Below, piece by piece: positions 5,813 through 34,427 of a stretch of 64,000 bases of DNA. Position 1 is the stretch's first letter. Every line of letters begins with the position of its first letter. The DNA comes from Nemertoderma westbladi (lineage: Eukaryota > Animalia > Xenacoelomorpha). The translations under genes were made by a program, and so were the position numbers. The DNA lies in contig JAUCBJ010006452.1 in NCBI GenBank assembly GCA_032718475.1, positions 1 to 64,000 of the forward strand. The letters are read 5' to 3'. The notes beneath the pieces are model-generated. The model worked only from the letters and a program-made list of their open reading frames with translations, was not told where the DNA came from and ran no database searches.

Positions 5813-5880
5813 GTTACTAAATAACAACTGCTGCCCTAGCCTAATAGACTCAGATACCACCAGCCACCAACAGACAAAAG

Positions 5881-12722: not shown

Positions 12723-13173
12723 TTAGAAGTAGGGATATAGATATAGATACTAGTTAGTAGTTAGAGGGGGGCATATGAGTACAGTCGGATAGATCGTGTA
12801 GGCCACGCGACACATACTACTGTACTGCATAGACCCACAGAGTAGGCCAGAATGTGGATTAGAAAGTAGGATAATTCACAGGCAATAGTAAGTAATAGCA
12901 CGGCAGGGCAAGAAATAAATAGTATAGGGCTGAAAGTTACGAATTATGGTAACAGTAGAGAAATTATTCTGGAACATAATAAAAGTAACGGACAGAAATC
13001 GTAATTAGGGTACATTTGTTAGCTAGGGAATTAGATAAGAAACAATATAAGAAAAAGGCGCAAATTAAGTAGAATATAGGCCATTATCGAACCGAAACAT
13101 CGTAATACATCACTCATCTGTACTGCGCCTTGGTAAGGCACCACCTTGCAGGTGAGCGAGTGTAGAGTTCGGG

Positions 13174-14667
13174 ATGGCGAGCAAGTTGATCAGGAAGAGA
13201 AAGGCAGAGTCAGGAGGAAAGGAGACATTGGTGGACTTCACCAAGAGACATCCGGAAGAGAAGACGAGAGGGTACTACGAACGGTTGGAGAGGGGTCACG
13301 CAGCACGAGCGCTACAAGACCATTTCAGGGAAGTGCAGGAACAGCGGCTGGTCGGGACCTACGGGACACCGTCGCTGGACAACGCGATATCCCAACACTT
13401 CCACTATGTAGTAAAGGGAGACGAAGAGAAGTTCGGGATTCCGAGGTACGCCAGGGATTCGCCGAAGAAGGATTGGAAGAGGTTCGTAGAATCCGTCAGT
13501 AGAGGAGGATATATGATCCTGGATGACGAGGGAACCGTGGAAGACGGGAAGGGACATAGTGGGTCAACCGGGATACCGGGATTGGAACCACTGCGAGAGG
13601 AGGAAGAAGACGACGACGAGTTCGGGGAGATGCCACCCATTGCGAGGATAGGCCGCTCGGATACGGACTGGGTTGGCGGAAGAGTGGTGACGGCCAGTGC
13701 GGCGCGAGCCTTCTGGGACACGCCCGGCAAGCGGGCCTGGGTGCACGAAGAACCGGCGATGGATTTCGCGGGGGACACCATCAGGCTGGGCGAACAACCG
13801 GGAACGGCACCACGGGTAGTATTCGGGGAGACGATGCCCGATAGGGGCGGAGAAATCGACGTAGAAAGAGACAGCAATGTGGAAAAGTTCGCCTACCAGC
13901 GACTCCATAGACCGCGGAGGTCGCTCGGGACGAGAGACGACGTGGGGCGGGAGACATTGGTACTAGGCTGCGACTACTGTGGGAGACAGACCCACCAGGA
14001 AAGGAGCTGTTTGTATCGGTTCCAGAGGGGAACCTTTTGTCTCTACTGCCGAGAAACAAGCCACAGGATGGGAGCGTGTCCACGGTTACACAACCGATGT
14101 CCAAAGTGCCACTTCCGGGGACACTACGGACGCCAGTGCGACTGGATGGACGACGAGGAGAAGTTCGCAAGGTTCGAGGAGTGGGCCGACGTAGGGGCTA
14201 TGACGCGCCAGCGCATGAAGGCCCAGGAGTTCAAGTGGGGTTTCTTTCTCATAAACCAGGAGACCCACATGGAGATCATAAAGAGAAGGTTACCGTTTAC
14301 CTATCAAGAGGTAGCGACGGCGGCGTCGTACGCCGGAGTTATGAACACGCAACGGTACCTGGACAGATGGACACCGGAGAACCGAAAAGAGTTTAGGGAT
14401 TTCTTGACGGAACACGTACCGCAAGCAATGAAAACGATCCTATGGGACGCCACCAGAGGGAGGCAACCGGGCCACTCTGAGGGACCACCTGCGAAGCGGT
14501 ATCGGGCACTAATAACACCAGCGCCCAAGGAGCCAACAACCGGAATCAGCAGGGAGGTGGCGGCAAAGGTCCGAAAACACAAAGCGGATCCCAGAGGAGC
14601 GGTGATAAGCAAGAAACGACCCAGGGAGGAGGACGCCAGGGGGAACCACCCCCGAGGGAACAGATAG
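13174..14667 (+). CDS. Accessory ORF of A1: ExoI-motif remnant plus three zinc knuckles
   Basis: 497 aa. GYMILDDEG; CDYCGRQTHQERSC, CLYCRETSHRMGAC, CPKCHFRGHYGRQC. Collinear similarity to the B1 accessory ORF. Confidence 0.8.
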   Translation: MASKLIRKRKAESGGKETLVDFTKRHPEEKTRGYYERLERGHAARALQDHFREVQEQRLVGTYGTPSLDNAISQHFHYVVKGDEEKFGIPRYARDSPKKDWKRFVESVSRGGYMILDDEGTVEDGKGHSGSTGIPGLEPLREEEEDDDEFGEMPPIARIGRSDTDWVGGRVVTASAARAFWDTPGKRAWVHEEPAMDFAGDTIRLGEQPGTAPRVVFGETMPDRGGEIDVERDSNVEKFAYQRLHRPRRSLGTRDDVGRETLVLGCDYCGRQTHQERSCLYRFQRGTFCLYCRETSHRMGACPRLHNRCPKCHFRGHYGRQCDWMDDEEKFARFEEWADVGAMTRQRMKAQEFKWGFFLINQETHMEIIKRRLPFTYQEVATAASYAGVMNTQRYLDRWTPENRKEFRDFLTEHVPQAMKTILWDATRGRQPGHSEGPPAKRYRALITPAPKEPTTGISREVAAKVRKHKADPRGAVISKKRPREEDARGNHPRGNR

Positions 14668-15353
14668 GTTCCAAGGAGGCGAGGGAGTAGAACTGAAACT
14701 AGCACGTGGTATGCCTGGAGGGCACCGCACGGAACGTACGAACTATTAAGTAATTTAATTAATGCAAATATTCATATAAGTGCAATCTGTACGTACGTAC
14801 GTAGTAATCAGTAATAAAATACATACGTTCGGAGTAAGTACTATAGTCATACAACCTTTCTCAACTAGCTACTGGGAATGGGGGGCTAACATGACTATGG
14901 GACTATGGACGAGACATGAGACGACTTCACACCACTTGAGTGCGACGGCACGGGGGGGGGGGAGGTGACATTCGTCAGAGTGGATGAGGTAGTCAGTGAG
15001 GGGTCGAGGAGAGAGTCAGATAGAGCGGAGTGCGGAAGGAGTGCGGGCGCAATCCTATAGTGGGAAAGTGGTAAGAGAGTGAGTAAGGGACAGAGAAGTC
15101 CAAGAGTAGAGTGAGAGTTAAGGGCGAAAGTGTTGGGGAAACAAAAATCGTGTGAGAGGTGAGCGCGATCGGCCCGACGCGGACGCCAGGCATAAAGGGT
15201 AGCGTTATCATACCCAGAGGGAGCGGCCTGGAAAGTCGACTCCAAAAGAAAAGATTTCCACCCCACACCCGATGCTAGATCGGGATCCAGCGGGATTGTA
15301 ACGCACTTTAAGGTTTGATGCTATCTTCACCGGGAAGATAGCATGGGGGGGAG

Positions 15354-15889
15354 TGTTAGCGAATCAATCCCGCCAATACTCCACAAAGTTGAGCCAATAA
15401 GCAATATTGGGGGACACGAGATTGGGTACCAACCAACTCGTGCCTCCCCAACAGAATGGGAGAGAGAAGCACACAATAAGGGTCAGGGGTTAGTATCCTG
15501 ACAGAAGAGGGAATAGCTGGGGTGAACGGGAACACCCCAAAGGGCGCCAACAAGGGTAGCAACCAATCAGAGGGGGGCTGGCACCGATTGAGTATCGATA
15601 AGGCCACCATGCAATATAACCAGTAAGCAGTAATCACATTACCTCAGTTATCTCAGTGTTACTGGTGGTACAGTAAGTTACAATTAGGGAAGTACCGGGA
15701 TTTTAGTTACCGTCGTCCCGACAGCCATTAATGTTAGTGTATAACATCAATCTATATCTATATCTATATCACATCTCAACGTCAGAATATAACGAACAAC
15801 AATAACTCCAACTTTATACTCTTTCATACGGCGGGGACGCGTGAACTAAACCGGATAAATCGGGTTCATCTCCGGATGATCCCGTCACA
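15354..15889 (+). repeat. 3' LTR of A1
   Basis: Matches 5277-5812; followed by TSD TTGGT. Confidence 0.97.
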
Positions 15890-17445
15890 TTGGTCAATCT
15901 AGTCCCATAGAAAAATAATAGTTAGATTGATGAAATTGAACCTACTTTCAACTTCTTCAATCCAGACTTTCTGTCTAGATTGATCAGATTTAACAGATTG
16001 AAAATGTAGAGCCGAAGTATCCCTCTGTGCAGAGATGCCATGGGTTAGTAGGGCAGGCTTATCCATACCTAAAGGAATAAAGAGCAGGGCGGCTAGGCGG
16101 GTAGACTAAGCTCAAAGAGCAGGGCGGCTACTTCAAACATCTATAGGCCAGGCTACTATTGAAATCCCGCAGAGCTTGAGAGTGATTGACAGGCACAGTA
16201 ACAATACAGATGGTGTATGGTGACTTTCTGAATTGCAGTTTCAGTACACCTGCCGTCTGCAGAAGTTATTGCCAAATTTCTCCTCTCCACTCCAACTCCA
16301 TAAGTCAACATGGCATGGCCTTGTGTAACAAAGCCACTAATGAAATGGGCCGCACTTTTGCCGCCTAGTTGAATTAATAACATGTTGCCCTGTCAAGCCA
16401 GGAGTGCCTTAATAAATTTAATCAGCTACAGTCATACTGATAAATATTTTCCACTTTATATAAATAAACAAATTTAAAAGCAGAATCAATATTCTTAATT
16501 TTCTGAAGCTAAAGAAACCAAATGTCCTTACATTCGTTTCTCAGTTAGTTTAACAGTTATGTCCTTGACGTTCAAACCTTTATTACTTTGTTTAACCACT
16601 ATATTCCACCATATTCGTTATATAGACTTGAGGCACCTGCTCCAATGAACCTCCGGCCGCACGGCCGATCGCCCGCTGGCCGTAGCGATCAGGGCTAATT
16701 GGATTGCAGGGAGTAGGAAATGCCCCCCCCCCCCCCCCCCACGTTTGGCCGCCACGCTCAGTAGGCCCCTTGCTTAGACAATAGTCTATGCAGCAAGAGG
16801 AAATTGATAAGTACAGTAGGAAAGACTTGTCTTTTCTGTGGGCCGCACACCCGCATGTATAGATAGAGAGATGTGCAGATGTGAGTGTAGGAAGTAAAGT
16901 TAGGCATGGGCGGGGGTGGTTACATTAGGTAGGTTTAATATGATTTTCACTCAGCGCAGTTCGCACTAATCCCTATCGATTATGTTGCCATTTTTTGTTA
17001 CTTATTGTTTCCCGCCCTCCCTTGCAATCAATATTAAAACAGACCCCTGCGCCCCTGCGAATGTTTGATAGATTAATTGTTACATATAAATAATATTCAA
17101 ACAAAAAATAAATGTTCTTGTTTATTATATTTATGGAATGATCTCTTTATTAGCTAGTCCAAATGTAATCAGTGAGTAAAACATTTAATTTGTAAAAGTT
17201 ATAAATAATTATGCTTACAGTACTACATGTACTTTATTTGCTTGCAAGTGCCCCATAATTATCTGATCCCTGCAATAATCTCTTTTAAACCAATGCAACG
17301 GCTCTATTTTGGGGAGCCAACCATGTCCGCCTGTCAATCACTCAGTTGGCTAGAAACCTGCGGCGTCCTGAAAGATATTTCCAGATTGATGAAATTGAGC
17401 AGATTGAACAGATTGAAAAATGGACTTTAATTGAGAACATAACTG

Positions 17446-18568
17446 TACGTGACCGAGAGACTGAATCAAAGGCCTTGAAGAAGTCAACAAAGATAACAGC
17501 CAGATGCCTGTCTTTCTTTTTTGATAATTCTTCAATTATCCTTCTAAGTGCCAAAATGGGCTCCATGGTCCCACGACCTTTACGGAACCCATTCTGATTT
17601 CCACGGAGCAGTCTCTCAATGGGATCCCTGATGCGATTTAATAGAATCCTATTGTATAGCTTTGCAGCAATCGAGATCAATGAGATTCCCCGAAAAGAAC
17701 CATAGAGTGTTAGGTTGCCCTTCTTGGGAACTGGCACCAACTTATTTGTTTTCATTTCTTGTGGGACTCTTGTTGTTCGGTACATGTCTACTATGATGGG
17801 ATAGATGAGCTTTAAACACTCAGGTATTTTAAAGACCTCAGGGGGAAAACTATCTACTACACTGGCACGATTGGTCTAAATGCTCTTTGCAGCAGCCTTC
17901 ACTTCTGCAAAGGAGATATCACCAATGGGAATATCTGGGAGTACAGACTCAGACACTTTTACTTCTATAAAGTTATCAGGCAATACCCTGTCATTATTGA
18001 GGAGCTTTTCAAAGTGGGCCTTCCAACCATTGAGGCGATCGGCTGGTGATTCAGCCTTAACCTTCCTTCGTGGTTGGTTGGCTTTTTCGACCAGCAAGCA
18101 AGTTGATAGATCTCCATGCCTGGGATGATTGCCTGCTGTCGTCAGCATCATTGATGGCATCAACCTGTTGGTTTATTAGCTCCTGTAAATTAACAGAATA
18201 CTGCCTGTTCAGGGACCTAGATGCAGCCTTAACTGCATTCTTGGCCGCTGTAGTCTGTTTGAGTCGGGACTCTTTCTGCGCCTTGTAGAGGTCATTTCGG
18301 CACTTCTGAATTTTGTTGACAGTCCAGGGGGCCCGTTTCCTGTTTCGAGGGTATACAGGAACTGTTTCTGCCGATGTGATCTGTGATCTGCGAACTGTGA
18401 TCTGCCGCCTCAGAGGCAAGAACCTTATACCTGTTGCTCATGCTCAGTTGTAGTGTGAAGCTGGATCTCACACTTGGCTGTTGCAACAGAGGGGACCAGT
18501 CATGCTGCGGCAAGGCAGATTTCGTTGTTCTGCTAGCAAGCAGACTAAGTCTTACCCTGGCCACAATA
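17446..18568 (-). mobile_element. LINE piece 2 (linker and RT N-half), degenerate
   Basis: VPVPKKG..FRGISL..KLY..QNGFRKGR..FVDFFKAFDSV motifs, with frameshifts. Confidence 0.9.
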
Positions 18569-19341
18569 CGGCCCTTACATGCCAAAACCGTCTAATTCAA
18601 ATTTTTTGAAAAATGACATATGCATATATTTGGAATCAGAAAAACGAGGCGCATCTTTGTAGTCAAGTCTTAAGACGTAATTATGAAGTCCTAAGGAGTT
18701 ATATTTTTGCCAAAACCGGCTATCTCAACATCTGTCAATAATAGTAAATCCCAAAACCATCTATCTTTACTTAGATTGATTTGGAATTAAACATTAAGTT
18801 TGGTTTTATTGTTTCCTTTATGCCGAAACCGTCTATCTGTGAATTCTAGTCTATCTGTGTATTCTGTCTACTTGTATTCCGTTGGATTCAATATCTAATA
18901 ATTTTTCATTTTTAATTTACCAAAACAGTCGAGTCTATCTCTATGATCTACAATACAATAATGACACTAAACTTGCCTTATAGCCTACAATTATGTTTTT
19001 ACTAGTATCTAGTTTTACTAGTTTCCTAAAATGTAATGGGCTATCCAACATCGCAAACGCCATTTATATAGCTACAGTATGATTGTTTTCGTGCCATGGT
19101 AACGCTCTGACACCCATCTCCAGTATTTTTCGTGCTAAAATTTTCAAAAGTTTTTATGACTAACTAAAATAAATTTTATGACCTTTATTAAAAATTTTGA
19201 TTTTTTTTGGAGTGCTGATCACGAATGTGACACTGAAATATATCGCACATTGTTGATTATGGCATTTTTAGAAATGTGTCAATGTGCGGCACGAAAAATA
19301 TAAATGTAGAAAAATTTGTTAATCAAAAATCATTACTAAAT

Positions 19342-20548
19342 TGTTCGCGCTTTCAGACCTTTGGCAGTTTAACCCGCCAAATTATGATGTCTTCTAGATA
19401 TTAAATCGCTTTTTAGCCTATGACAAGTATTTGATTCACTACACTAGTCGAAACCAATCTGTGCGCGATCATTCACCCGCTGGATATACCCGGGGGATTG
19501 GGTTCGACGGTTTAATCTTATTGCTATGTAAGCCTAACGTATTATTCGACTGACAGTATTATATAATCTCTGACAATATTATTCACCTTCGGGGAATATT
19601 AACAGTTCCTTTAGGACGTGGCGCTCTATCCATATAAACAGAGTTATGACTTAAACTACTCACAACGATATGGCTTAATTATAATTCACATATATGGCGC
19701 ATTCTTTAGGAAATGCTTCTTTAACAGACTCACTCATACACAATGCTGCACAATACTGCACATTAATCCGCCGATCTTCACTGATTTTAGTCACATATAA
19801 AAGGAACACCGACTGACTCATGTAGGGTCTATCAAATAACATTAGATTCACTTCAAACCACTTTAACATAAGTCACAATCGATATATGTAACCCTTCTCT
19901 CTTACCTTCGGTATATCAAGAATATTGGGTTTCGGGGTTGTTTCTCGTTATTCCAAATATAATAATTCATCCACAAATATAATGAATAACCGACAGCAAA
20001 GCAGTAATGTTAAGTTAAGTTGCACAGTATGGGCCAATTAACCAGTTTGTTTTGAGTTAAGACAATCAGCAATTAGTTTGCGAGTGATTCGTTAGTTAAA
20101 GGATATATGTCCTTATAATTAAACCTACTAGTGTGAAGCTAAAAAGCATAAAAGCACAAAACACTACAAAGCCGTTCTTTCGTGGCTTTGAAAAACTCGT
20201 GACTACTACTCTATACGAGGATACCAACTACCCTTATTCCACGAAGCTCCCGTTCAACACAGAGAAAGAGCAGTGAGATAGGAAAATTTCAGTTCAGTAG
20301 CTCTGTGATAGGTCAAAATCAAAGCTAACTCAAATTCTATTGGGAGATACAAAAACAGGGCTATGACGCAACCTCCCTAGGCTGGTTGTCCGATTAAACA
20401 GAGCCCAGTTACCTGCTTACAGCAAATCAGCCAATAAGCTGGTAGCTTGCACTATTTTAGTTATAGATCCCCTTTAGAGTATTCTAGCGACCGGGGGGGA
20501 ACTGGCCAGCAAAGCAAACGAACCAGTTATCCCACAAAAGCTTTTACA
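19342..20548 (-). repeat. 3' LTR of B1
   Basis: Near-identical to 36694-37900; TG..CA termini. Confidence 0.97.
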
Positions 20549-20626
20549 CCGCTCCCAGAAAATGGGATTTAAGTCTATAAAATATACAAAATTACAGTTT
20601 CTAAAATATAAAAATACTCTAAACAG

Positions 20627-23600
20627 TTAGTCTTTCTTGCGCGGACGGCGTTTACGCAGTTTCTTGAGGCTAGCAAGAGTCCTTTTCTCTTTGGGGCGAG
20701 CCACTTTATGAGGAGGGCTGTAGCTCCTAGGTGAAGGGTGCAATACAATTGCATCAGAAGGTGTAGGGTTACGATCGGTATACCCGCCGGTCGAAGTACC
20801 TGGTTGATTAATATCAACCTCAGTGGAGCGAGGTCTAACGGTCTCTAGAGCGCGTCTCAGGACAGCAGCTCCTACGGGTCCCTGACGGGTCGTCTGGACA
20901 CTAGCGGTGGGTGGACCGTGAGTGGTAAGGAACTTTCGCGGTTTAATGGTTCTCTCCAGCTTGCGTTCTCGGGTTTGATATTCATATGGGCGCCGAGATA
21001 CTTCCTGGAGTTCAGGATGCGAGTTCACAAAAATGTCGCCATACTCAGGGTCCTGACGGATAAAATTGATCAGGTGATATGTAGTTATATCATTAGGGTT
21101 GACGTTTCTAAGGTATTTTCTGACAAACTTGGTGGAAATACACTCACCAACACGCTTCATTAACTCGTAACTGGGTACGCATGTTTTCTGTTCAATCGAC
21201 GCAAATAGGTAAGGATGGAACTCGTAAACTCCCTCGTAAGCTCGTCCAGGGTAATAGCGATGTCTGGATTCGCAATGTAAATCTGCGTTTGCTTCCCAAG
21301 CTCGAATGTATCGCAGGGTGATCATTTCGTCTACGCTCTCTAAATCGCGATTAAAGGGACAATTGTAACTTTCATGTCCTTTAAGTTGACAGTAGTGACA
21401 TTGAGTCATAAATTGTGGGCAGAAGGCAAAAATATGAGAGTTATTAAGTCTGCAATAAGCACAATATATTTCCATCATCGGTTGTTCGAGGAAATAGGAG
21501 CAAGGTGCGTTGGAGTCGAGAGGAGTGAAGTGGTCTCTCGATGCGCATAATCGACAACGTTTTCGAGAAACGTAGTTGGCGTGTCGATAATCGTACGCTG
21601 TGAGACGTTGTGGACCTTGATACCACTCTATGACATAATCATTGTCACTGCTCCGGGAAGCTGTAGGCTGAATCGCTTCTGATTCCAAGCATACTGGCTC
21701 ATCCTCCAGCTGCATAGACGAAGTGGGTGCGTCTGTTTCCGTAAGTGGACCCACTGTCTGTATTTCCACGACAGAATAACCTATAGGTATTCGAGGTCTT
21801 TGTATAACCGATGAATGTAAGTTCTGTATACAAATTTCTTGAAAAACGGCAAATCCAGCGCTACTCAGTTTCTCAGCAGCTGAGTCTCTCAGACTGAGTT
21901 TGGTCAGCGCGCGGTCCTTGAACTGACTATCAACGTTACGGAACGGAGTCAGGAAGCGCCGGAAACATTCAAAACGTATAAACTTATTGTGTTCGTCTAA
22001 CTTGGCGAGTTTAGTTCCAAGTATCAATGGGTGAGCGCGTATGGTACGACTGCACACATCGGCTAGCCAACCGGCAAGTGCTGCGTTTTCAAAGATCGTG
22101 CATATAGCTAAGGAAGGACGAAGTGGAACACTCATAAAGCTATACACGGCACCAGGCGCAGTTAATGGTCCATCGAAATATAAACGAGAGTAATGATCTC
22201 CATATACTTGCTGGTAATTGATAGGATTTCCAACCTTGAAATTCCAACCATATTCTTGAAAGGCAAGATGTCCGATGGATGTCCGTTGTACTTTAGTAAT
22301 GCCGCAGGGGGTATTGGCATACATAGTGCGAAAGAAACCTCGGCCTTCGGCCCAAGGAGCAATCAGCTGAGTATCAACGAAAGGGTATGGAATGTTCTCC
22401 ATATTCCGGAAGTCGTTTTGGAGGTCTCCATAAACAGCTGAGCCGATTTTTAGAATTCTTTCGTTAAACAACATTTCGAGTACAGGTTGGGGTAACATTG
22501 ATCCATCGATACCCATGGCCGGTTTGCGCTCGGTGTCGGTGACGTAACGCTGCGCGAGCTCGAATTGTCCATGTCAAAGTTTCTTTTGTATCTCCATAAG
22601 AGTTTCAAAAGAATAATCAATCACGTCGGAACACGCTCGAGTGAATACGTGGGTAGAACCAGCAAGTCCTCGTATATGTATCATTCGCGTGGTTCCTAAT
22701 TCTCCCACCGGAACGCTACCTTTGTTGTCATAAGTAACAACGCCATACATCTCGATAACGTTAAGAGTCTCGTTCCATTCTTTAGTGGCGTTTTCGAGAG
22801 TCATTCCCACTGGATGCCATAAAGTAGCGCACTCATTAGCATTGGGTAAATCTCTATACTTTAAGCATTGTGTAGTATAGGTTTCCACATCTCCATATCT
22901 TTTTACTCTTTCTTCCTCGAATAACACGTCAAGATTCCAGTGCACTAATCGAGTTTTAATGAATCCATCAAGATTGTACGGAGGTGATGTTTCTTTCTCT
23001 ATTCTAGAAATATTATACGGTTTTCGAAATGAGTTTAATTTAACTAGCTGATCTAGATGTTTTTGTAGTTGTTCGAGTTCGACAAGATCGAGAGGATTGA
23101 TTAATGGTAGGAACCTCAGACTATGCGTAGGATCTTCCGGTTTCACCATGTAATATTGCTTCAAATTGACGTAATAAGGGTGATCCTTAATTCCATAAAA
23201 TGAGTCCGGCAAAGGTCTAGCGCGTATGTTAACATCGTGCACCATGCGACGGACAAGATCCGCTCTATTGTCCGGAGGCTCAACAAGTACGCCATCGACA
23301 CGAGCAGCCTCGACGGGTGGACGTTGTAGCATGGGAGCGTCAGCAACGAGCTCGTGAGATCTGAGATCAGTATTAACCGGTTGAGGCTGTACCGTAGCAA
23401 AGAGCTTGTCTTTAAACTGAGGAACCATCAAGGGGTGGAGGATCGTTTTGGAATAGAGATCCGTCACTAGAATTTGAACTTCTGGTTGGGCTAAAGCTGC
23501 TTCTTCCCTCTCAGTCAGCTCCATATGTCTCTCCTCGAGCTGATTTTCCTCCGCTTGTTGTTGCAAGCGCTCGTCCAGGAATTCCTGTAAAGAGTAGGTT

Positions 23601-24719
23601 CGTCCACGTTCTATGTCCTCCTCTAGATTTTGTATTTCTCTATCGAACTGGGGTAAAGCTAGTTCTTTCACCGCTTGGACTTGTTGTTGCAATTTACGTT
23701 TCTCCAAGCAATCGTAAGTTCCTTTTCCAATTTTCTGCCGAATAGCGTCTAATGCATTTCGTATCACGCTCTCTTCGACTTCTGTAACAGGTTGGATCGG
23801 AGGAAGGCCAGGACGGTTGTAGGGGTTAAACGGTGATATTAGATGACCGCGTCCTAGTCCAGCGAGGTAAGGTTGGCGAATAGCAAACAAACCCACTACC
23901 GGAGTGCCACCAATCAACTGTTCAGGTAACACTAGATCTTTGAACAGTGAGTACAGTTCGGGAGGATCCGTAATACTATTAGGATCTAGAGTTTGAGGTA
24001 TCACTTGGGAATGGGGAGGTCTGACCGAGTATTCCGGAACTCTGATCATGGGTTTATTCAATGATCGCTTAAGGCGCGCGACCGTAGGTGATACGTCGAA
24101 AAGGTTACGCTCGAAACTCCCATAAGTATATCGTGTAAAACTGTGTTTAGCACAACGTCTCCGAGGATGTTTATGCCTTTCGATTTGCTGGTTAGGTCTA
24201 GGGCATTCATCACAGTAATACCAAAGACGCACATCTTGAAGGGGAAAAGCGGGTGATCGCTCTCCAGTTTTACAATATTCCTCCATCTGTTCGAAGCTAT
24301 CTGGAACGACAGGTAGCACGTTTATCAGGTTCTTCAACGTCTTCTCTTTCGAGTTTGTTTCGAATAGAGTTCTCGTGTTCTATTCTCGATTTATCGTTTC
24401 GACTCCGCTGGGTATGATATTTAAATAAAACCATTTCCCTTTTGGTGTCTACATCGTCCGTATCGTGTAAATCGATAGGGTGACCAGTAGTCAAGAAGTC
24501 CATATACATACCATTACGATGCGTATAGCGAGCCGTGAACTTTCTATAATCCAATTCACGCGTAAGTTGCTCCTGGGACATTGGCGGTTCGATATAACAA
24601 CCATTGTCCTCCGTAGTAGTTGGATCAGCGTCGCCGCGTATCAAGCTATCAACAAACGCTTGAAAAGGTAGAGTATATCTCTCCCTGATACCAAGATCAT
24701 CTTCTATTAATTCAGTCAT
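20627..24719 (-). CDS. Accessory ORF of B1: DEDDy (WRN/EXD-like) 3'-5' exonuclease-like domain plus three zinc knuckles; one in-frame TGA and one frame offset
   Basis: ORFs 22574-24337 and 20627-22516 share a frame with a single TGA between them; 24297-24719 is offset by +1. Motifs GVVTYDNKG, LPQPVLEMLFNERILKIGSAVYGD, FVDTQLIA, SIGHLA, PLT...Y; knuckles CRLCASRDH, CAYC..H..C, CHYCQLKGHESYNC. Confidence 0.8.
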
Positions 24720-26351
24720 ATCTGCTATACGAGTTCACCAATATTATAATGAGTTTATATATTGTTAGGCGAGCGGGCGTCGCTGCCTATTTCTCCCGTG
24801 CCCCCAGACAGTAAGAGATTCTCAGCGCCGATGTACCGCTGTAGCTGTACTTTCGCCAACGACGTAGCTGTACAACGACAACGATAACCGGCACAAGTCA
24901 CTCCACTGTCCGTCCCAAAGGCTTAGATGTACTTCAGGTTTTCCTTGGAGAGTTAGGTTACTTTCACGATTGCGACTAGCTACTGTAAACACACTTTAGC
25001 AGTAACATTCACCTATAAACTCACAAATACCACACAACTTGTCACAACTACACACATTCGGGCCATTTGTCCGTTAGTCAATGCCTTCCAGAATGTCACT
25101 GTATTGTTATGTTTCCTTGGATACTAGCAGTGCACTATTTATTCCCTATGCTATTCAATGGGACAAGCTTTCTATTGTTCTTTTAACTCAATTCTAATTC
25201 TAGCGTGGTTTTTGCTATGTGACATTATGTAAAGCTAGCGGTAGAATTAGGGTAATTCCAATGCATACAGATCTGGGATGTTATTTAATAGTAATTCTTT
25301 AATAGTCAATGTCCTGTTTTATACATGACTTTATGAATTTTATCGGCTATTGACTATGTTTGGGAGACTTTCATACACGCATACGCATAATAATATAAAT
25401 CTCCGCTCCCTTGATCTATTAATTAATGGAATTTTGGGAATGTTATAAATTGCGTAAAATGGCAATTTATTAAATTCATTAAAAGACATGAATTTAAATT
25501 TATTCCCTGAAATTTTATTATTTGATAATTAAATTGACATATTTTGATTCCAGAACATCCTTAATTCTATGGAAATTGTCCTTTTAAGAATATCGGTAAA
25601 TGCGACGATATCTTAATTGACTAGAATTGTTGAAGGATCTGAATTTTACAGATTTTGACTTATTAGATTTGCAAATATTAAATAATTAATATTTGAGATG
25701 GGCACCGATTTATTCCAGAACTTGTCTGGGGACGTTAACCACTGATTCTATAATTTGTCTTTCAAGTATATCGGTGGGTGCCACGATATCTTAATCGACT
25801 AGAATTACAGATGGTCAAAGGGTTTAACAGATTTATTTTGCGTTATACGCTACTGTTAAAGGGACATCACGCTACTATATGTATTATTTAATATACGGTA
25901 TGAGAGCAATATCGCACGAAGCAATGTCAGTGTGAAGAGGCAAGTCGTTTCCAAGGTCTACCCAGAGCTTGGTTTAGCCGAGACACGAGGATCTGAACTT
26001 TGCATTCCTAATACTCTGCCTACCAATAATACTTAAATATAGTAGTGGCTTTATTGTACTTTAATAAGTACGGACATTTCATCTTACTGTAGTTACGTAT
26101 TTATAATATAATACGGACAGTAAGGAAGAGAAAAAATAATTATTTCTTCGCCGTCTCACTAAATATAATATAAGTAATTACGTACGTAATAAACACGAAT
26201 ATATTGCACTATTCTACTAAATAATCGCTAAATAATATTCTACTAAATTAAATAAAACGATTATAATAAAATTACATAGTAATACATACATAAAATATAA
26301 AATAATAAAATAATATAAAATAATAGAGTCACACGCCCACTCCGAACGATA

Positions 26352-29300
26352 TTAAGTTGGGGAGCCCCTAGATGTCGGTTGAATTAGGGAAGTGGTCGTG
26401 GGAAGAGTTTCTTGCCTTCCATAGTTTCCGGAGAGCTCTCTGTCTCTTTCCAGTAAACATAAACGACCCACTGGGCGGTTGAGCTGTTGAGTCTCAAAGA
26501 CTATCCCTGGTTTCTTAAAGTTACGACGCATGACGACGAGTTCTACTGATCGCACTAAGCCATCGCTCGAGATATAAGTCTCGATGATTCGTCCTGTTTG
26601 CCATCGCTTACGTGGGAGATCGGGGTCCACAATAAGCACCATGTCTCCAGTGCTGACGTTTTCTTGCTGCGCAAACCACTTAGTTCGAAGTTGTAGAGTG
26701 GGCAGGTAATGTTTCTCGAAATGGTCAGCGAAATGACGGGATAGCAACTGCATAAGTTGCCAGGTTCGACGGCAGTACTCGTCTCCGTCGGTGATCTCCG
26801 ATTGTGGGAGCATGGCTACGGGCTTCTTCAGCAGAAAGTGCGCGGGTGTTAGCGCTTCCAGGGAATCAGGATTTGAAGAGACTGGCATAAGCGGTCTTTC
26901 GTTGAGATAGGCGGCGATTTCCTCCATTAACGTCCGCAATAATTCGTCGGTGAGATAAGCGCGACAAGGCACAACAAAGTGGAACGCAGTCTTCACGCTC
27001 CTAATCAATCTCTCCCAACTTCCTCCCCACCAAGGGGCGTCGGCGGCATTGAAGGTCCAGCTAGACGCTGTTATCTTTAGCTGATTGTCCACCTGTCTTC
27101 CGTTCCAGTCCTTTATGTAAGCTTGAATTTCGTTGTTGGCGCCAATGAAGTTCGTTCCCTTATCCGATCTCATCGTGTTACTGGTTCCGAAGCGAGCGAT
27201 CTGTCGTCGTAAACTCAACACGAAGCTGTTGGTGGATAGATCGTTTACCATATCGAGATGGATAGCTCTACAAGTCATACAAACGAAGATGACACACCAT
27301 CTTTTGACTATAGTCCAGGCACGATATACTTCAATAGGGCCAAATAAATCCACACCGGTATTAGTAAAGGGTGGTTCATAGAAGCTTACTCTTTCCCTAG
27401 GTAATTCTGCCTCTCGCTGTGTTAAAGGCCTACTGAATGCTTTCCTACAGGGTATGCAGTTCCTAAGAACTTGGTTCAGAGCCCTACGGGGTTTATAAAA
27501 ATAGTAGCGAGTTCGAATTTCGCTCAGAACTCTTTCTCTACCAGCATGGTACAGTTTGCTATGAACATCTACAATTATCTTGATTTGTATGTCAAGATTT
27601 CTAATGAGGATGGGAAACTTAGTGTCAAAGGATAATGGGGCGTTAGTTAGCCTACCTCCAACACGTATTAATCCATCTATCATGGTACTAGAGAAGCGAT
27701 CCCTTAAGCGCATCTGCGGATTTCTTAACAACAGGAAATACTTATCGGAATCCTTATAGCATTGTAGGAGTCTTAGCATCTGTTTGTTGGTTTCATCATG
27801 CTCCTGGTAACTGATCTTCTCCGTTAGAAACCTGTCGGTTATCTTGTACTTTGGAAGATCTTTAACAGCATGTACTCGTGCAGATGTTGATGGAGCATCA
27901 TCACTATTGGTCTTTGTCCCGGAGTAACGATGATGAAAACATCGTTTCAAATAAGTAACAGCTTTACAAAGCCGATTCCAGGAACTGTAGTGACGTATCG
28001 CTCTCTGCAAGAGAGGTGAGAGTCCTTGCGAGATATCTGGTATTCCAGATTTCCAATCCTTGTCACGGATTTCCAAGATTTCTTTGGTCGTAGCAGTGGG
28101 TTTCTGATCCAAAGCATCCTCTCCGGAAGTAAATAATACAGATAGATCAACCGCAGGTTTAAACAACTTCGATTTACTCGCTCGAGTTTTGGGTTTAACT
28201 TTCTCCGCTCCCTTGGCCTGTCTGATCTCTGCTGTTGTGAGATGGGGAGGCCATTCCTCTTCTTCTCGGTAGAGAAAGTCAGGTCCTCCTAACCATTCGG
28301 GAGTATTTACCAATTCCTTTGGAGTTGCTCCTCGGGAAGCGATATCCGCTGGATTAATCGTTCCGGGGCAATGTCTCCATTGATCCATCGTCGTGCGACT
28401 AAGTATGATGGCTACTCTGTTGGTAACGAAGACGCTGAACTGACAGACTTCATTGGTTATATACTCTAACACGAGTAAAGCGTCGGTCCAATAGACAGTT
28501 TTCTCTAAGGGATAGTCAATCTGTTCTGTTACATTCCGGCCGATGGCTGTAGCGTATAGAGCCGCCTTTAACTCCGCTCGAGGAACTTTCAACTTGTTGT
28601 TGATTAATGCCTTAGAAGTAACCAAGGCGACTTTGATTCCATCCGGAGTTTCCACTCTTAGATAGGCTACTATACCTATTCCCATATCGCTGGCGTCTCC
28701 AAACACATGGAGTTGATAGGAATACGTAGGGAGAACATGACCAAAATATGAACGGGAAATTATAAAATCCTCGATAGCAGGTAGGGAATCTTCCCATTTC
28801 ATCCACTTCTTCAATAATTCTCCCTTAAGTGGATCGTCCCATGAGTGGTTTTCAAGCCACATTTGTTGTACCAAACTACGAGCAATCAATATAACTGGGC
28901 TAATAAATCCCAATGGATCGAAATAAGTGCTCAGTATACTTAAGCAAATCCGTTTGGTTCGAACGGGATTATCTCGCTGTTTTAGTTGGAAAAACAGGAT
29001 ATCTCTCTCTGTGTCCCATTTCAAGCCGAGTGTCTTGGTTTCTGGCAGATCATCTTTGATCAAATCGAGATCTTTCGCTCCTCGATCTTCCGCAGGGATC
29101 GACTCCAGAAACTCACGGGAGTTGCTGGTGAATTTCGTTAATCTAAACCCACCTCTTTTTAAGCACTCTACCGTTCCTTTTGCGACCTCAATGGCTTCTT
29201 CAACTGATGGAAGGGACTTCAGATTGTCGTCCATGTATATGTCTCGCTTGATGTTGTCGATCACTTCCTTAGAGAAGGCCTCTCGGTTGTCTTCTGCAGT

Positions 29301-32300
29301 GGCACGCACTACTGAACAGGCGTTGGAAGGGCTTGAGATTATCCCAAAGGCCTGGATGGTCATCCAGTACTCCACCGGTTGCTGGTTGAGGTCTCCTTCG
29401 GGCCACCATAGAAATCGTAGGCTATCTCGATCCTTATCCAACACTTTGACTTGCAAGAACATGCCTTCTATATCGGAGGCGAAAGCAATCGAATATTGTC
29501 TCAATCTTAAAAGAATTCCCAACAAAGATTGAAGTAAGTTGGGTCCGGGTAACAATTCAGAGTTAAGGGATTGACCCATGTAAAGAGCGGAGCCATCAAA
29601 CACTACTCTCACTTCGTTTGGTTTACCGGGTTTAGGAACGTAATGGTGAGTTAAGTAATACGTTCTTTCAGTCACAGGTGTTTCTTCCGGTACCCTCTCC
29701 GCGTATCCCTTATTAATAAATTTTTCCAGCTGTGTTTGATACATTGCTTTAGCTGAAGAATTAGCCGTAAGGCGTCGATGGAGTTGCGCGATTCTTTTTT
29801 CCGCCAAAGGTCTATTATTGATGAACTTCGGTTCTCTCTTGCGGAAAGGTAAACCAACTTCATACCTACCTTGATCTTTGAGGAAACGTGTAGTTGTCTC
29901 TTGGATCTGCTTGGCCCTTTCCTCTTCCACCGATAATGCTTTATCGTAGGAATTGGGCTCTACCGCCTCTTGCGTAAAGAATCGGACAGCATGTTCATCT
30001 CGAGTCTTGGCATTATGACGCTCAATGACGTCATTTAACTCGTCGTTATAAGCTTCTTGTTCAGATGGATAAAGAAGTTGACATAAGTTCACTTGGTTTT
30101 GCCAAGCCTCGTTTTCCTTAAGGAGATCGATGATATTCTCCTCATCAAAAAGCTGGTGAATGTCGTCGTTATCTGAGGAGTATGGAGTTCCCTCAGTTAA
30201 ATCGTCTCCTTCACTAGTATCATCTTCCCATTCACTCACCTGGCAGACTCGCTCTTGCGGTAATCTTTCTCTGAGTGTTCTACGGGAAGGGCCAGTAAAG
30301 TACCAACCTACTCTAGTTCTTACCGCATAGGTCTGTAGTGGCTGCGGTTGAGCAGGCCGTTTCTCTAATGTCTCCAGCGCCTCATGCGCGTTTTGGCCGA
30401 TGAGTATTTGCACTCCAGGATAATCAGTCGGGAATCGAGGTATGTTAAGATGTTGGATGCTCTCATCCTCATCCCAATTATAAAGGTCTGCTTGAGTAGT
30501 AGCGAAGTTCTTTATAGCCACCATTTTCACTGACCTTATGCTATGTTCTCCTAGTTCGTCCTGGGGGGTGGACAACGCTCCTAAATAATAATCTGCTGTT
30601 ATTGTAGATTTCCAAACTTGCATGATTCCGGACATGTTTAGCTTGGTTCGGAACTTGGGTTGTCCATTGAATATGTCTTCGGCTAGTTCTTTATCAATGA
30701 ATGTTCCTGTGCTGCCGGAATCCAGGAGGGCGTTCACCACACAACTCCGTTCAGGCCCGTGTACCCTTACCTGCACCACAGGAAACTCTCGGATCCCTAC
30801 ATTGGAAGATGGCTCTTTCCAAGATGGTTGTCTTTCAGAAGTAGTTAGGGTTAGGTCGCTGTCTGTGTCTTTTTCATATGTGAGTGCTCGATACACTGCG
30901 GTATTTATCATGTAACAGGATTCGTTTTCGTCGGAGAACTCATCCGTGTAGAATCCTTCCATCTCAGATTGATCAGTGTCGTTCACATCACTGAATTGGA
31001 CATGTAGTTCGGAATCACTTACCTGATTCGGACTATTTCGCTCGAATTCAGCGTGCAACAAGATATGATGTTTCGCACCACACTTTGCACACCTTAGGTC
31101 AGAAAAACAGGTTCGCCGTTGGTGTCCTTGTCTGAGGCAATTATAACATAACCGCTTATCCCACATAACTTCACGTCTCTCAGTTAATGATTTCTTTAGA
31201 AATTCATCACACATATTCAAACGGTGGGTCCCGTCGCATAGCGCACATTTCGGTTTGATGTTACTTACCTTATTCTGAGTCACATTGTGTACACTCGCCT
31301 TTTCTTCGGGCTTTCTCACCTGAATTCTCTTGGGAGACGTAGGAGGAGTTTTTCTTACCTGTTCTCTCCTGTCATTTGTTCGAGACTTAAATTTACTCAC
31401 CTGATCTTTAGGCATTTTATTCACGTAATAAGATCTCTCAGTGTCCTTCCCGCTATCTTCTCCCTGAGAAGTCGGGCTTTCGCCGTCGTCTGTATAACAC
31501 ACTGGTGTTATCTTTCTCCTAGAGACGGGTTTTTCACTTACCTTGTTTTCCGGTGTCTTCTCTCTGGATTGCTTGAGGAGTTGCAATTTCACTTCTCCAT
31601 CCAGGAATGACATGAGATCAGCCATGGTAGGGTCTCGTCGCTGTTGTTCCATCATATATAGTACTTTCTTATCCCAGCGTGTGCCTACCCCACCTTTCGG
31701 TAAAGTAGAAGCCACAGCTCCAATGACCATAGAACTTTGGTATTCATGAGACTTACCTAACCAATCTAATTGTCTACAGATCTCTTGAATCTCATCGGAA
31801 AACTCTATTATCCCACTGCTGATGAACTTTCTGGGCGCTACTAATTTTGCATATAAATACTTGGCGATATTATTCCTATTACCATACCTGATGTTTAGTG
31901 TATCCCAAACTTGTCTTAATCCGTCTGGATGTCCAATAAACTTTAACGCCATTAATTTGGGAGATCCTTCCAAGCACTCGATGAGGAATCTAAGTTTCTC
32001 TCCATTATATAGGACAGAGTTCTGTATGTTATCTTTGTAATATTCATTAAAAGGTAACCATTTCATCTCATCTCCATTGAACTTGACGATCTCTCCCACC
32101 TTCACCGCTTGCCGGGCTTCGGTTCTAGCCATTTGACGCGTAAAACTTTCTTGGGCCATCGTGTTATTTAATATCGAGCTATCGGTATATAAATTTCTCG
32201 GATTATGATCAGTTCTATATGGGATATCATTATCAACAGGTCTATAATTACCCTTAATAGGGTTCACTATAGGAGTTTCTACTTCGCTAGCAGTATAAAT

Positions 32301-34427
32301 GCGTGTAGGCTCCACACCTTGCGCATGTGATACTTCAGACCTAACAGGTTGACATATTGTTACAAGGGGTGGTGGTATACCCCTTTGAATGTTCACTAAT
32401 TTATCGCGCTCTAGCGCGATACTTTGCTGCACTTCTTGCAACTCTAGTCTACTTTCCCTTACTGTGCCCTTAAATTGTTGAACAGTCTCCTGCATCTGCC
32501 CGAGCAGGAGATCCACCCCCCGCCGTCTCTCGTCCACCCATTCGACCGCCGAAGCGGGAGTCGCCAACGTTGTAGCGGGCGGACGAGGGACAACGGGCCA
32601 CAAATTATGAATGTTTCGCTCGGGGTCCAGGACCTGAACTGTCTCCTGGGCAGTTCTACGGGGCACAGGTAGCTTAGTGCTATGCAGAGGGAATTTAGAG
32701 GTAACTTCAGGGAGTACAGGTGTGTCTATCACCGAAGGGGTGATTTCGAGAACAGGCCTAATTATTTCAGGCTCATCTACTATAGTAGGGAGTCTTTCTA
32801 TTTTAATTATTTGGTCTGTGGGCTCTGTACTACCTAAATTGTTGTTATTTAGTTGCCTTCTAACAGCTGGAGGCAAATCAGGCAATTTCTGACGGTGGAA
32901 TGTTCTTTTACGTCTACTTAGACGAGATCTATTTCCCTTGCCTTTAGTATCAGTGGTATCGCCTTCCTCAGATGATGTATAACCCTGTCTTTTGGGAGTA
33001 GATCGACTCATCATCTGCATATTACTAGCTGTTAACTGTTTATTTATGCAGTCTTGATTCTCTTGAAGATTTTCCAACTCCAGTTGGGTGATCTCTTCCG
33101 CTGCTCTCCGTTCTGCTTCCGCCACCGCTGCCGCTTTTGCCTCTGCCGCTGCCGCCTTTGCCTTTACCTCGGCTTCTGCTGCTGCCGCTTTTGCCTCTGC
33201 CACGGCTTCTGCCAAGGTCGCTTTTCTTTCTGCCTCTGCCACGGCTGCTATCTTTCTGTCTTCTATACGTTTTTTCCTTACTTGTTCTTCCTTTTCTCTA
33301 GCGATGCGGAGTTGTTCATCGAATTTAGCTTGATTCGCCGCTAACCTATCTACATCTATTGCATCCAACACACGCTGGGCTCCTTCACTATTAGGGCTAA
33401 GTCCATCTAGCCTTCTCCTCAACTCTTCATCTCCCAAAAAACGCTGATAGTCGTCAATATAGATGTCAATGGCATCCCTCTTATGCGGTTTCTCTGCCGT
33501 CGCTTCACTTTCCGCTTGGAAAAAAGTAGCGTCCGTTGATTCTCCATGGGTTGAGCGCTCCTCCAACTGAGCTTTCCACTGAGCTGCTCCTTGAACCTGG
33601 CGATTCACTCGTTGAAACCAAGTCTTTACGGCAACTTGCAACGACGTGTCTTGTCTTCTTTTAGAAGCCTCTTCAAAGGCTGATAAGATTAGCCTAATTT
33701 GCAGAACTCTTTCTCTAACTTGATAAAGCAGCTGTCCCTGCTCTTGAGGTCCTTGAGGTTGTTGTAACAGTTGTTTTTCTACTCGCTCCATAGAGCTGAA
33801 GAATCCTTGTGCGTATCCGGCTGCAGACCTCTTCCATACAGCTGGATCGATGGTTTCCTTGGCTACTCCCATCCGGTGTATGTCTTCCCAGGCAGCTTCT
33901 GATAAATTAAACGGGAGTCCGGGTCCGGGGAAGTTCCATTGCAACTCGACAATAGACTTCAGTTCTTCCCTCGTGTATCCCGCATAACTATCTCTAGTTG
34001 ATCGTTGACTTCTCGCCCAATCGATCTGGTGTTCTTCCACCGCGATCAATAACCTAGTGAGCACGGCTGCAGGAAGGATGAGAAGGGGATCCGAATAAAC
34101 CGCATCCGTTATCTCTGCTCCGCACTCGGGTTTCAGCTCTACAGTATCCTCACTACTGGAGCTGTTGGGCCGCTGAGAAATAAGTTCCCGGCTCGCGGGT
34201 TTTCGCTGTTCCGCTGCTTCTTGGTCCCGCTTGACCTGAGCTCGAGTGCCTATGATAGACCTACGATGTTGGACTAGCCTAGGTTCGGTTATTACTACTG
34301 GAGGGATGACCTTCCTCACAGTGGGAGGTGAACTGGACTTACGACCAGACGGTTCTACATCTCTATCTGAGTCGCAGATCGTTACATCTAATAAACTGTC
34401 TGACAGGTTCTGCTTAGTATCAGACAT
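26352..34427 (-). CDS. gag-pol: BEL/Pao Gag-Pol polyprotein, intact (2691 aa)
   Basis: KFNGDEMKW gag core, triple BEL knuckle (CALC..H..C, CYNC..GH..C, CAKC..HH..LH), PR LLDSGS, RT YMDD, RNase H HVFGDAS/WTDA/NPAD, integrase GVDLFGP/SDKG/WERLI, in PR-RT-RH-IN order. Confidence 0.98.
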   Translation of the reverse strand: MSDTKQNLSDSLLDVTICDSDRDVEPSGRKSSSPPTVRKVIPPVVITEPRLVQHRRSIIGTRAQVKRDQEAAEQRKPASRELISQRPNSSSSEDTVELKPECGAEITDAVYSDPLLILPAAVLTRLLIAVEEHQIDWARSQRSTRDSYAGYTREELKSIVELQWNFPGPGLPFNLSEAAWEDIHRMGVAKETIDPAVWKRSAAGYAQGFFSSMERVEKQLLQQPQGPQEQGQLLYQVRERVLQIRLILSAFEEASKRRQDTSLQVAVKTWFQRVNRQVQGAAQWKAQLEERSTHGESTDATFFQAESEATAEKPHKRDAIDIYIDDYQRFLGDEELRRRLDGLSPNSEGAQRVLDAIDVDRLAANQAKFDEQLRIAREKEEQVRKKRIEDRKIAAVAEAERKATLAEAVAEAKAAAAEAEVKAKAAAAEAKAAAVAEAERRAAEEITQLELENLQENQDCINKQLTASNMQMMSRSTPKRQGYTSSEEGDTTDTKGKGNRSRLSRRKRTFHRQKLPDLPPAVRRQLNNNNLGSTEPTDQIIKIERLPTIVDEPEIIRPVLEITPSVIDTPVLPEVTSKFPLHSTKLPVPRRTAQETVQVLDPERNIHNLWPVVPRPPATTLATPASAVEWVDERRRGVDLLLGQMQETVQQFKGTVRESRLELQEVQQSIALERDKLVNIQRGIPPPLVTICQPVRSEVSHAQGVEPTRIYTASEVETPIVNPIKGNYRPVDNDIPYRTDHNPRNLYTDSSILNNTMAQESFTRQMARTEARQAVKVGEIVKFNGDEMKWLPFNEYYKDNIQNSVLYNGEKLRFLIECLEGSPKLMALKFIGHPDGLRQVWDTLNIRYGNRNNIAKYLYAKLVAPRKFISSGIIEFSDEIQEICRQLDWLGKSHEYQSSMVIGAVASTLPKGGVGTRWDKKVLYMMEQQRRDPTMADLMSFLDGEVKLQLLKQSREKTPENKVSEKPVSRRKITPVCYTDDGESPTSQGEDSGKDTERSYYVNKMPKDQVSKFKSRTNDRREQVRKTPPTSPKRIQVRKPEEKASVHNVTQNKVSNIKPKCALCDGTHRLNMCDEFLKKSLTERREVMWDKRLCYNCLRQGHQRRTCFSDLRCAKCGAKHHILLHAEFERNSPNQVSDSELHVQFSDVNDTDQSEMEGFYTDEFSDENESCYMINTAVYRALTYEKDTDSDLTLTTSERQPSWKEPSSNVGIREFPVVQVRVHGPERSCVVNALLDSGSTGTFIDKELAEDIFNGQPKFRTKLNMSGIMQVWKSTITADYYLGALSTPQDELGEHSIRSVKMVAIKNFATTQADLYNWDEDESIQHLNIPRFPTDYPGVQILIGQNAHEALETLEKRPAQPQPLQTYAVRTRVGWYFTGPSRRTLRERLPQERVCQVSEWEDDTSEGDDLTEGTPYSSDNDDIHQLFDEENIIDLLKENEAWQNQVNLCQLLYPSEQEAYNDELNDVIERHNAKTRDEHAVRFFTQEAVEPNSYDKALSVEEERAKQIQETTTRFLKDQGRYEVGLPFRKREPKFINNRPLAEKRIAQLHRRLTANSSAKAMYQTQLEKFINKGYAERVPEETPVTERTYYLTHHYVPKPGKPNEVRVVFDGSALYMGQSLNSELLPGPNLLQSLLGILLRLRQYSIAFASDIEGMFLQVKVLDKDRDSLRFLWWPEGDLNQQPVEYWMTIQAFGIISSPSNACSVVRATAEDNREAFSKEVIDNIKRDIYMDDNLKSLPSVEEAIEVAKGTVECLKRGGFRLTKFTSNSREFLESIPAEDRGAKDLDLIKDDLPETKTLGLKWDTERDILFFQLKQRDNPVRTKRICLSILSTYFDPLGFISPVILIARSLVQQMWLENHSWDDPLKGELLKKWMKWEDSLPAIEDFIISRSYFGHVLPTYSYQLHVFGDASDMGIGIVAYLRVETPDGIKVALVTSKALINNKLKVPRAELKAALYATAIGRNVTEQIDYPLEKTVYWTDALLVLEYITNEVCQFSVFVTNRVAIILSRTTMDQWRHCPGTINPADIASRGATPKELVNTPEWLGGPDFLYREEEEWPPHLTTAEIRQAKGAEKVKPKTRASKSKLFKPAVDLSVLFTSGEDALDQKPTATTKEILEIRDKDWKSGIPDISQGLSPLLQRAIRHYSSWNRLCKAVTYLKRCFHHRYSGTKTNSDDAPSTSARVHAVKDLPKYKITDRFLTEKISYQEHDETNKQMLRLLQCYKDSDKYFLLLRNPQMRLRDRFSSTMIDGLIRVGGRLTNAPLSFDTKFPILIRNLDIQIKIIVDVHSKLYHAGRERVLSEIRTRYYFYKPRRALNQVLRNCIPCRKAFSRPLTQREAELPRERVSFYEPPFTNTGVDLFGPIEVYRAWTIVKRWCVIFVCMTCRAIHLDMVNDLSTNSFVLSLRRQIARFGTSNTMRSDKGTNFIGANNEIQAYIKDWNGRQVDNQLKITASSWTFNAADAPWWGGSWERLIRSVKTAFHFVVPCRAYLTDELLRTLMEEIAAYLNERPLMPVSSNPDSLEALTPAHFLLKKPVAMLPQSEITDGDEYCRRTWQLMQLLSRHFADHFEKHYLPTLQLRTKWFAQQENVSTGDMVLIVDPDLPRKRWQTGRIIETYISSDGLVRSVELVVMRRNFKKPGIVFETQQLNRPVGRLCLLERDRELSGNYGRQETLPTTTSLIQPTSRGSPT

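Follow-up and report, generated by a model that had tools for sequence, protein, structure and literature searches.

In a 64,000-nucleotide window of Nemertoderma westbladi DNA (contig JAUCBJ010006452.1, positions 1 to 64,000), a BEL/Pao long terminal repeat (LTR) element of 18,559 bp on the minus strand (19342-37900) houses a third gene in the env position, with ~1,360 codons of coding sequence (24719-20627, minus strand). We found that this gene carries a domain very probably derived, as judged from sequence comparison, from the DEDDy-type 3'-5' exonucleases, followed by three Cys/His knuckles. We also found that the third gene is almost certainly under selection in its BEL/Pao family and that, in the window copy, the domain has three breaks. 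We tentatively propose that the product is an active nuclease that acts for the element, most likely on intermediates of small-RNA silencing.

The coding sequence runs in three pieces. Open reading frame a (ORF-a; 24719-24297, 140 codons from ATG) is followed, one frame over, by 24379-22577 (601 codons) and, after an in-frame stop at 22576-22574, by 22573-20627 (648 codons). Residues are numbered on the read-through of this long frame. P0002 in the following lines is a distant homologue described below.

24297-24719, minus strand: ORF-a of 140 codons, which shows constraint in its own frame and is offset in frame from the rest near 24320-24275
22763-24296, minus strand: constrained N-terminal portion of the long frame, ~510 codons that match no known family
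22055-22762, minus strand: predicted DEDDy-type 3'-5' exonuclease domain, read-through residues ~540-775, with ExoI near 551-553, ExoII at Asp652 and ExoIII at 760-764
21359-21556, minus strand: three Cys/His knuckles, CX2CX4HX9C, CX2CX5HX4C and CX2CX4HX4C
21050-21358, minus strand: conserved post-knuckle segment, common to P0002 and the 3' ORF of a second BEL/Pao family
20627-21049, minus strand: basic low-complexity C-terminal tail, ending in KKLRKRRPRKKD, a possible nuclear localization signal

An earlier reading of the letters alone (the sequence-only reading) had described this gene as ~1,350 codons without signal peptide or transmembrane segment, and every motif that it quoted sits where it was placed. 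Hydropathy agrees with that description, but the codons do not lie in one frame. The best 19-residue Kyte-Doolittle mean was 0.41 in ORF-a and 1.54 in the remaining third gene, and hydropathy across the whole third gene revealed no hydrophobic or membrane segment of the kind that forms the signal peptide or transmembrane anchor of an env-like ORF3. Because no 19-residue window exceeds a mean of 1.54, we concluded that the third gene is not env. The three knuckles were recovered as Cys/His clusters at 21556-21359, of which the third alone has the canonical form CX2CX4HX4C, and Pfam zf-CCHC_3 scored below its cut-off on the region (E 0.0099).

The same frame offset after ORF-a is seen in another copy of the family in the window.

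57124-64000, minus strand: decayed second copy of the large BEL/Pao family, 76-86% alike by segment

The second copy has no frame-changing indel at the offset. Since the offset is common to both window copies, it is not a private lesion. Third-position bias tracks the ORF-a frame upstream of the switch and the long frame downstream of it, and the two copies diverge sharply across ~45 bases at the switch (24320-24275). A short intron, a programmed shift or two separate genes may explain the offset. Forty candidate GT/GC-AG introns hold the frame open at the offset and none stands out; none of them lies entirely within the diverged 45-base stretch with both ends common to both copies.

Family variation was drawn from contigs of four public runs (four studies), which cover 30 of 30 bins of the region; the data are depth-weighted rather than counted copies, and one run may be the source of the window itself. 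In every one of the four runs, contigs making up at least 99.6% of the depth depart from the letter of the window at residues 553, 602 (the stop) and 760, and we therefore regard these three positions as breaks of this copy. At 553 and 760, the letters of the other copies agree with the corresponding motif positions of P0002. We classed 40 of 41 variant rows in the domain (22050-22780, two runs, at least 30% share in one run). Thirty-five variants segregate in the family (residues 535-776), 32 of them synonymous and 3 nonsynonymous, which gives a per-site ratio of nonsynonymous to synonymous variants (pN/pS) of 0.027 on 163 synonymous and 560 nonsynonymous sites. Five further variants are private to this copy, all nonsynonymous, with private synonymous changes possibly hidden within the segregating class. 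Outside the domain, 15 of 17 segregating variants are synonymous (26 of 40 rows classed, 1,187 variants overall; the rows set aside comprise 7 in the domain, 5 poorly supported in two deep runs and 2 out of frame). Compared with the second window copy, ORF-a has an uncorrected pN/pS of 0.24 over 129 codons, the 5' part of the long frame one of 0.34 over 233 comparable codons and gag one of 0.17 over 714 codons.

Because family variants are mostly synonymous and the breaks are private, we concluded that the third gene is functional in the family and decayed in this copy. The sequence-only reading had called the copy either decayed or a pseudonuclease. The first holds, as the deviations are private to this copy; a pseudonuclease is not favored for the family. 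The same reading had named neutral evolution and absence of the gene from other family copies as grounds for giving up its claim, and neither applies; the family pN/pS is far from neutral, and contigs of all four runs cover the region. A captured host gene carried neutrally in the element might explain why the domain of this copy is broken three times, and the third genes of bdelloid rotifer elements showed no significant departure from neutrality (PMC5408684). The family pN/pS largely refutes such neutral carriage. In addition, no indel at a share of at least 30% is found in the domain (two runs, 22050-22780), and the distant homologue has the same layout, so that we consider neutral carriage hardly credible. 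The five private nonsynonymous changes in 731 bases (22050-22780) exceed what the divergence of the LTRs (5 in 1,207) would lead one to expect, and three of them fall on motif positions or create the stop. Decay of the third gene may thus have taken place in a lineage that was still transposing.

The DEDDy identity of the domain was assessed by homology. An exhaustive phmmer search with the residues after the stop returned one match, P0002, among 1.84 billion representatives (E 1.8e-4); compared pairwise, P0002 and the window domain are 31% alike over 112 residues (E 3e-12). P0002 is a single ENA sequence on one 9,449-base contig and has a predicted exonuclease domain followed by three Cys/His knuckles. 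The knuckles of P0002 lay outside the query region, which argues that the exonuclease-knuckle layout is common to both proteins. On Pfam PF01612, the N-terminal domain of P0002 scored below the cut-off (E 0.039-0.2). Against the Atlas, the same domain matched 3'-5' exonuclease clusters with PF01612 in 24 of 30 matches (score 0.94); the Atlas cluster listed for P0002 has PF01612 on 34% of its members, and the three best rows (0.94-0.95) are unnamed clusters.

We built a DEDDy profile from 32 bacterial PF01612 domains. P0002 aligns to it at each of the three motifs, where it reads D-V-E, D and Y-x3-E (hhalign 76%, E 2e-5). The window domain, with X at the stop, scored 10.2 bits (single-target E 2.5e-5), a score reached by none of 500 shuffles (241 scored at all, the best at 3.5); the significant match is confined to the ExoII region. 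Four other parts of the same frame gave two scores below zero and two unreported, and in a six-frame scan of the window the domain was the best place for the profile (E 0.034 over 426 pieces). Similarity of the window domain to PF01612-type domains is therefore present on our own profile, weakly, and is stronger for P0002.

Other searches added no relatives. PDB sequence searches with the domain and with a two-sequence profile gave matches at chance level only. Word-index protein searches found nothing with the C-terminal piece (at lengths 356-1134 only), nothing with residues 500-1080 of the read-through with X (at lengths 688-2190 only) and nothing beyond itself with P0002. Scans of viral contigs and metagenomes found no relative; three metagenome loci considered as relatives proved to be unrelated knuckle proteins, and the one match in a plasmid tblastn search was judged to be chance.

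ExoII is Asp652, which aligns both in the pairwise comparison with P0002 and in the comparison with the DEDDy profile. ExoIII lies at residues 760-764 (22102-22088) and ends in Glu764, aligned to the Y-x3-E of P0002. ExoIII at PLT..Y was ruled out by the P0002 alignment. The sequence-only reading had reported the ExoIII Asp as missing; we found an acidic residue, Glu764, ~20 residues past PLT..Y. The aromatic position of ExoIII (760) is broken in this copy only. The D-x-E of ExoI is present in P0002, and in other family copies the register 551-553 fits it, with the break at 553 confined to the window copy. Among family variants, Asp551 and Asp652 vary synonymously only, and Glu764 has no variant among 40 of 41 rows. 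Residues 546-565 carry 8 synonymous and 0 nonsynonymous segregating variants; two of the three nonsynonymous variants fall in 594-617. We favored the 551-553 register because Asp551 varies synonymously only and 546-565 holds no nonsynonymous segregating variant. Segment scores do not separate the two candidate ExoI registers, which are reached by 819 and 749 of 2000 shuffles. The family motif set is likely D-E-D-E, with the ExoIII aromatic kept, and we filed the domain as a DEDDy-derived variant rather than a canonical DEDDy member. Homology and purifying selection in the family thus support what the sequence-only reading claimed, a DEDDy-type domain and three knuckles fused in the third gene of a BEL/Pao element; its reading of ExoIII was wrong.

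We found that the knuckles (21556-21359) and the segment after them align not only with P0002 but also with the 503-codon ORF of a second BEL/Pao family in the window, which itself matches P0002 at E 6e-15.

13156-14667, plus strand: 503-codon intact 3' ORF of the second BEL/Pao family, with the triple-knuckle module and no exonuclease domain

The element that carries it (5277-15889, plus strand) is young and non-autonomous, with 536-bp LTRs that are 99.8% alike and a 5-bp target duplication; gag and protease are present, and there is no reverse transcriptase (RT) or integrase. Because the second family has the module and no exonuclease domain, the module travels with or without the nuclease. 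The knuckles of P0002 match the retroviral nucleocapsid (NC) of human immunodeficiency virus type 1 (HIV-1) at E 1e-4 and Air2 weakly (E 0.064), and the Atlas gave only leads below 0.9 for the module of the second family. In the large family, the second window copy (57124-64000) lacks most of pol as well as the exonuclease and the knuckles (a deletion equivalent to ~20771-23523). Runs X1, X3 and X5, too, have contigs that join across nuclease and knuckles. A relative of the second family at 42546-47323 extends into RT and has satellite on its flanks; 36/37-bp satellite arrays at 40710-42546 (50 copies) and 47220-47975 (20 copies) bracket this decayed relative. Elsewhere in the window, a 249-codon frame (54105-54854, minus strand) resembles a small surface protein, being hydrophobic at its start and at its end and containing many Cys and a Thr-rich stretch; it matched no Pfam family above cut-off.

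Several observations weigh against a DEDDy-type exonuclease that works for the element. The hhalign probability of the window domain was only 25% (maximum of 60 shuffles, 3.8%), and Pfam gave no match to it at E 10 and matched P0002 only below cut-off. AlphaFold2 models from the single sequence, with no alignment, reached predicted local distance difference test (pLDDT) scores of 31 and 32, too low to confirm the fold. ExoIII is not the canonical Y-x3-D, having Glu instead of Asp in both the family and P0002. MAFFT and hhalign put ExoI ~40 residues later, near 588-592, where the first Asp is absent. The binomial p for the domain variants (6e-18) overstates their independence, as the variants are linked and depth-weighted. 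Finally, RNA binding may be the core function, given that the knuckle module persists without nuclease in the second family.

The missing Pfam and PDB sequence matches, the low pLDDT and the existence of one homologue only would all fit a gene that is selected while its domain has another fold, the motif matches being coincidental. Against this stand the independent profile test, the Atlas match of P0002 and the agreement of other copies with the motifs at two positions that had been chosen from sequence alone. We consider a fold of other origin very unlikely.

In a closer alternative, the fold is derived from DEDDy enzymes but hardly catalytic or not at all, and the protein is an RNA-binding adaptor that exports, localizes or shields the genomic RNA of the element, in the way that Egalitarian, EXD1 and Maelstrom serve the host and CERV serves Cer1. 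Consistent with this, CERV is a Cys-rich accessory protein needed for export of genomic RNA (PMC10309623), and the third gene combines the ExoIII Glu of family and P0002, the first Asp absent in the aligners' ExoI register, a basic C-terminal tail and a knuckle module that survives without the nuclease in a non-autonomous family. P0002, in contrast, is ~30% identical to the family and keeps all four acidic positions and the ExoIII aromatic, and synonymous changes alone are seen at Asp551 and Asp652. Dead DEDD folds usually lose acidic residues, which counts against the adaptor. We judged the adaptor somewhat unlikely, and catalytic activity of the third-gene product, as predicted from its motifs, somewhat more likely than not.

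We confirmed that the element around the third gene belongs to BEL/Pao (Belpaoviridae), as the sequence-only reading had assigned it. Its parts outside the third gene are as follows.

36694-37900, minus strand: 5' LTR, 1207 bp
26352-34460, minus strand: gag-pol, one intact open frame of 2702 codons, with two gag knuckles, protease LLDSGS, RT YMDD, RNase H, integrase and DUF5641
24720-26351, minus strand: spacer from pol to the third gene, 1,632 bases, AT-rich (34% GC), non-coding
19342-20548, minus strand: 3' LTR, preceded by a short purine tract

The open gag-pol between the LTRs matched Peptidase_A17 (the Pao-type RNase H; E 1e-35), DUF5641, DUF1759 and Integrase_H2C2 above Pfam cut-offs, and its domains follow the order protease, RT, RNase H, integrase (motif positions 1245, 1742, 1922 and 2432). 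The insertion is young, since the two 1207-bp LTRs have TG..CA ends and differ at only 5 positions (99.6% alike) and a 5-bp target duplication flanks the element. Fragments of a non-LTR element with RT and endonuclease (17342-18591 and 38766-39539, minus strand) lie on either side of it. The BEL element seems to be a nested insertion inside another repeat, which recurs inverted at 52860-53741. In the 2.2-kb leader between 5' LTR and gag (34461-36693) we noted a 288-bp tandem duplication (35756-36329) and 38-bp repeats (36497-36623). The spacer is 88.8% alike between the window copies (24780-26340 versus 59900-61450), compared with 85.0% for gag and 77.6% for the 5' part of the third gene; the excess may reflect a conserved cis element or recombination between copies. 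The spacer likely holds expression signals. Rfam over 19000-38200 and ARAGORN over the whole window found nothing.

The first 60 bases past the 5' LTR of the large element (within 36693-36630, minus strand) hold no TGG-type primer-binding site, and none was seen beside the 5' LTR of the second family (5813-5870, plus strand). A perfect 9-bp hairpin lies within 45 bases past the 5' LTR of the large element. An active exonuclease could work within replication, trimming the transfer RNA primer, the 3' end of the genomic RNA or the ends of complementary DNA in the particle. A shortened primer could be required, since no TGG-type site was seen in either family. RNase D-type enzymes trim the 3' ends of structured RNA (PMC5408684), and the resemblance of the P0002 knuckles to those of HIV-1 NC fits such a role. 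Most BEL/Pao elements, however, replicate on gag and pol alone (PMC8742986), and the second family also lacks the site, yet has no nuclease in its 3' ORF. Trimming in replication is therefore, in our view, unlikely.

The model we prefer is that the third-gene product would be an RNA-binding DEDDy-type 3'-5' exonuclease that acts in trans on RNA 3' ends to the benefit of the element. As pol and the gene lie 1.6 kb apart, with non-coding DNA between them, the gene would have a subgenomic or spliced mRNA of its own. The product would work in trans, and the gene appears not to be needed in cis, because there are copies that pair an intact gag-pol with a broken third gene and others that have lost the domain by deletion. 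Multi-knuckle Air2-type adaptors hand RNA to Rrp6. Here, the knuckles and the segment that follows would bind single-stranded RNA and pass it to the nuclease, and the pairing of knuckles with a 3'-5' exonuclease points to RNA 3' ends as the target. The likeliest substrate would be host silencing RNA, or precursors or cleavage products from the element transcript, and such trimming would blunt small-RNA control of the element. Counter-silencing as the main target takes about half of the confidence that we give to activity; the sequence-only reading had also raised a possible role against PIWI-interacting RNA (piRNA). The most specific version, in which a giant BEL/Pao clade encodes an active D-E-D-E exonuclease with portable knuckles that degrades piRNA or small interfering RNA intermediates of the host and is supplied in trans to copies lacking it, is doubtful in full.

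DEDDy third genes have been published for the Juno and Vesta (PMC5408684) and Athena/Terminon (PMC6431247) elements of bdelloid rotifers, as the sequence-only reading had noted, and DEDDy is mentioned elsewhere among the accessory domains known from LTR elements (PMC6338049). Like the gene described here, the rotifer ORF3 is a non-env third gene past pol with an RNase D-like domain, kept acidic residues and no membrane segment. It differs in that the carrier here is BEL/Pao, that its reported motif set is DEED (PMC5408684) rather than D-E-D-E, that the domain here is part of a stretch of ~1,360 codons that also encodes three knuckles and, after them, a conserved segment, and that purifying selection is seen here. 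With cellular DEDDy proteins (PF01612: RNase D, WRN exo, Rrp6, Mut-7/Nibbler, EXD1 and Egalitarian), the domain shares an ExoII region that scores on the bacterial profile, and P0002 matches them in motif order and spacing. In contrast to them, ExoIII ends in Glu, there is an insert past the third strand (~14 residues in P0002, ~45 here in the favored register) and a further insert of ~22 residues precedes ExoIII. No HRDC domain was detected by Pfam. A cluster of uncharacterized Caenorhabditis exonucleases with PF01612 (PMC3985635) could be element-borne. CERV, from the Caenorhabditis elegans element Cer1, resembles the predicted third-gene product in being Cys-rich, in serving an LTR element as an accessory protein and in acting on element RNA, but Cer1 belongs to Gypsy, and CERV combines a G-protein-like domain with a potential C4 finger; the main text of that paper does not use the word "exonuclease" (PMC10309623).

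The element shares with Belpaoviridae its LTRs, single gag-pol frame, domain order, Peptidase_A17, DUF1759, DUF5641, purine tract and 5-bp duplication. It differs in size, 18.6 kb versus 4.2-10 kb in the ICTV profile (PMC8742986), in a third gene that is not env-like and in showing no TGG-type primer-binding site within 60 bases of the 5' LTR. A 2011 survey of BEL/Pao accepted full-length elements up to 15 kb, and its main text does not contain the word "exonuclease" (PMC3118150); relatives could stand without annotation among the element sequences in its supplements. We found no DEDDy genes in BEL/Pao in the accessible parts of the open literature, a scope that leaves out subscription journals, Repbase and supplements, and no relevant passage in the accessible text of a 2026 review of host-element coexistence (PMC13269885).

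These findings would extend DEDDy cargo to another LTR superfamily, BEL/Pao, and define a D-E-D-E motif variant together with a knuckle module that moves between families, whether the nuclease accompanies it or not. Elements this large exceed the length bounds of earlier BEL/Pao surveys and may have been overlooked. The rotifer case left open whether the DEDDy genes of retrotransposons serve the element, and the BEL/Pao family adds evidence of selection: strong purifying selection, with predicted catalytic Asp residues that vary synonymously only, indicates that the third gene is needed. Whether retrotransposons of animals encode enzymes against small-RNA silencing can be put to a direct test with P0002, a homologue that is naturally intact.

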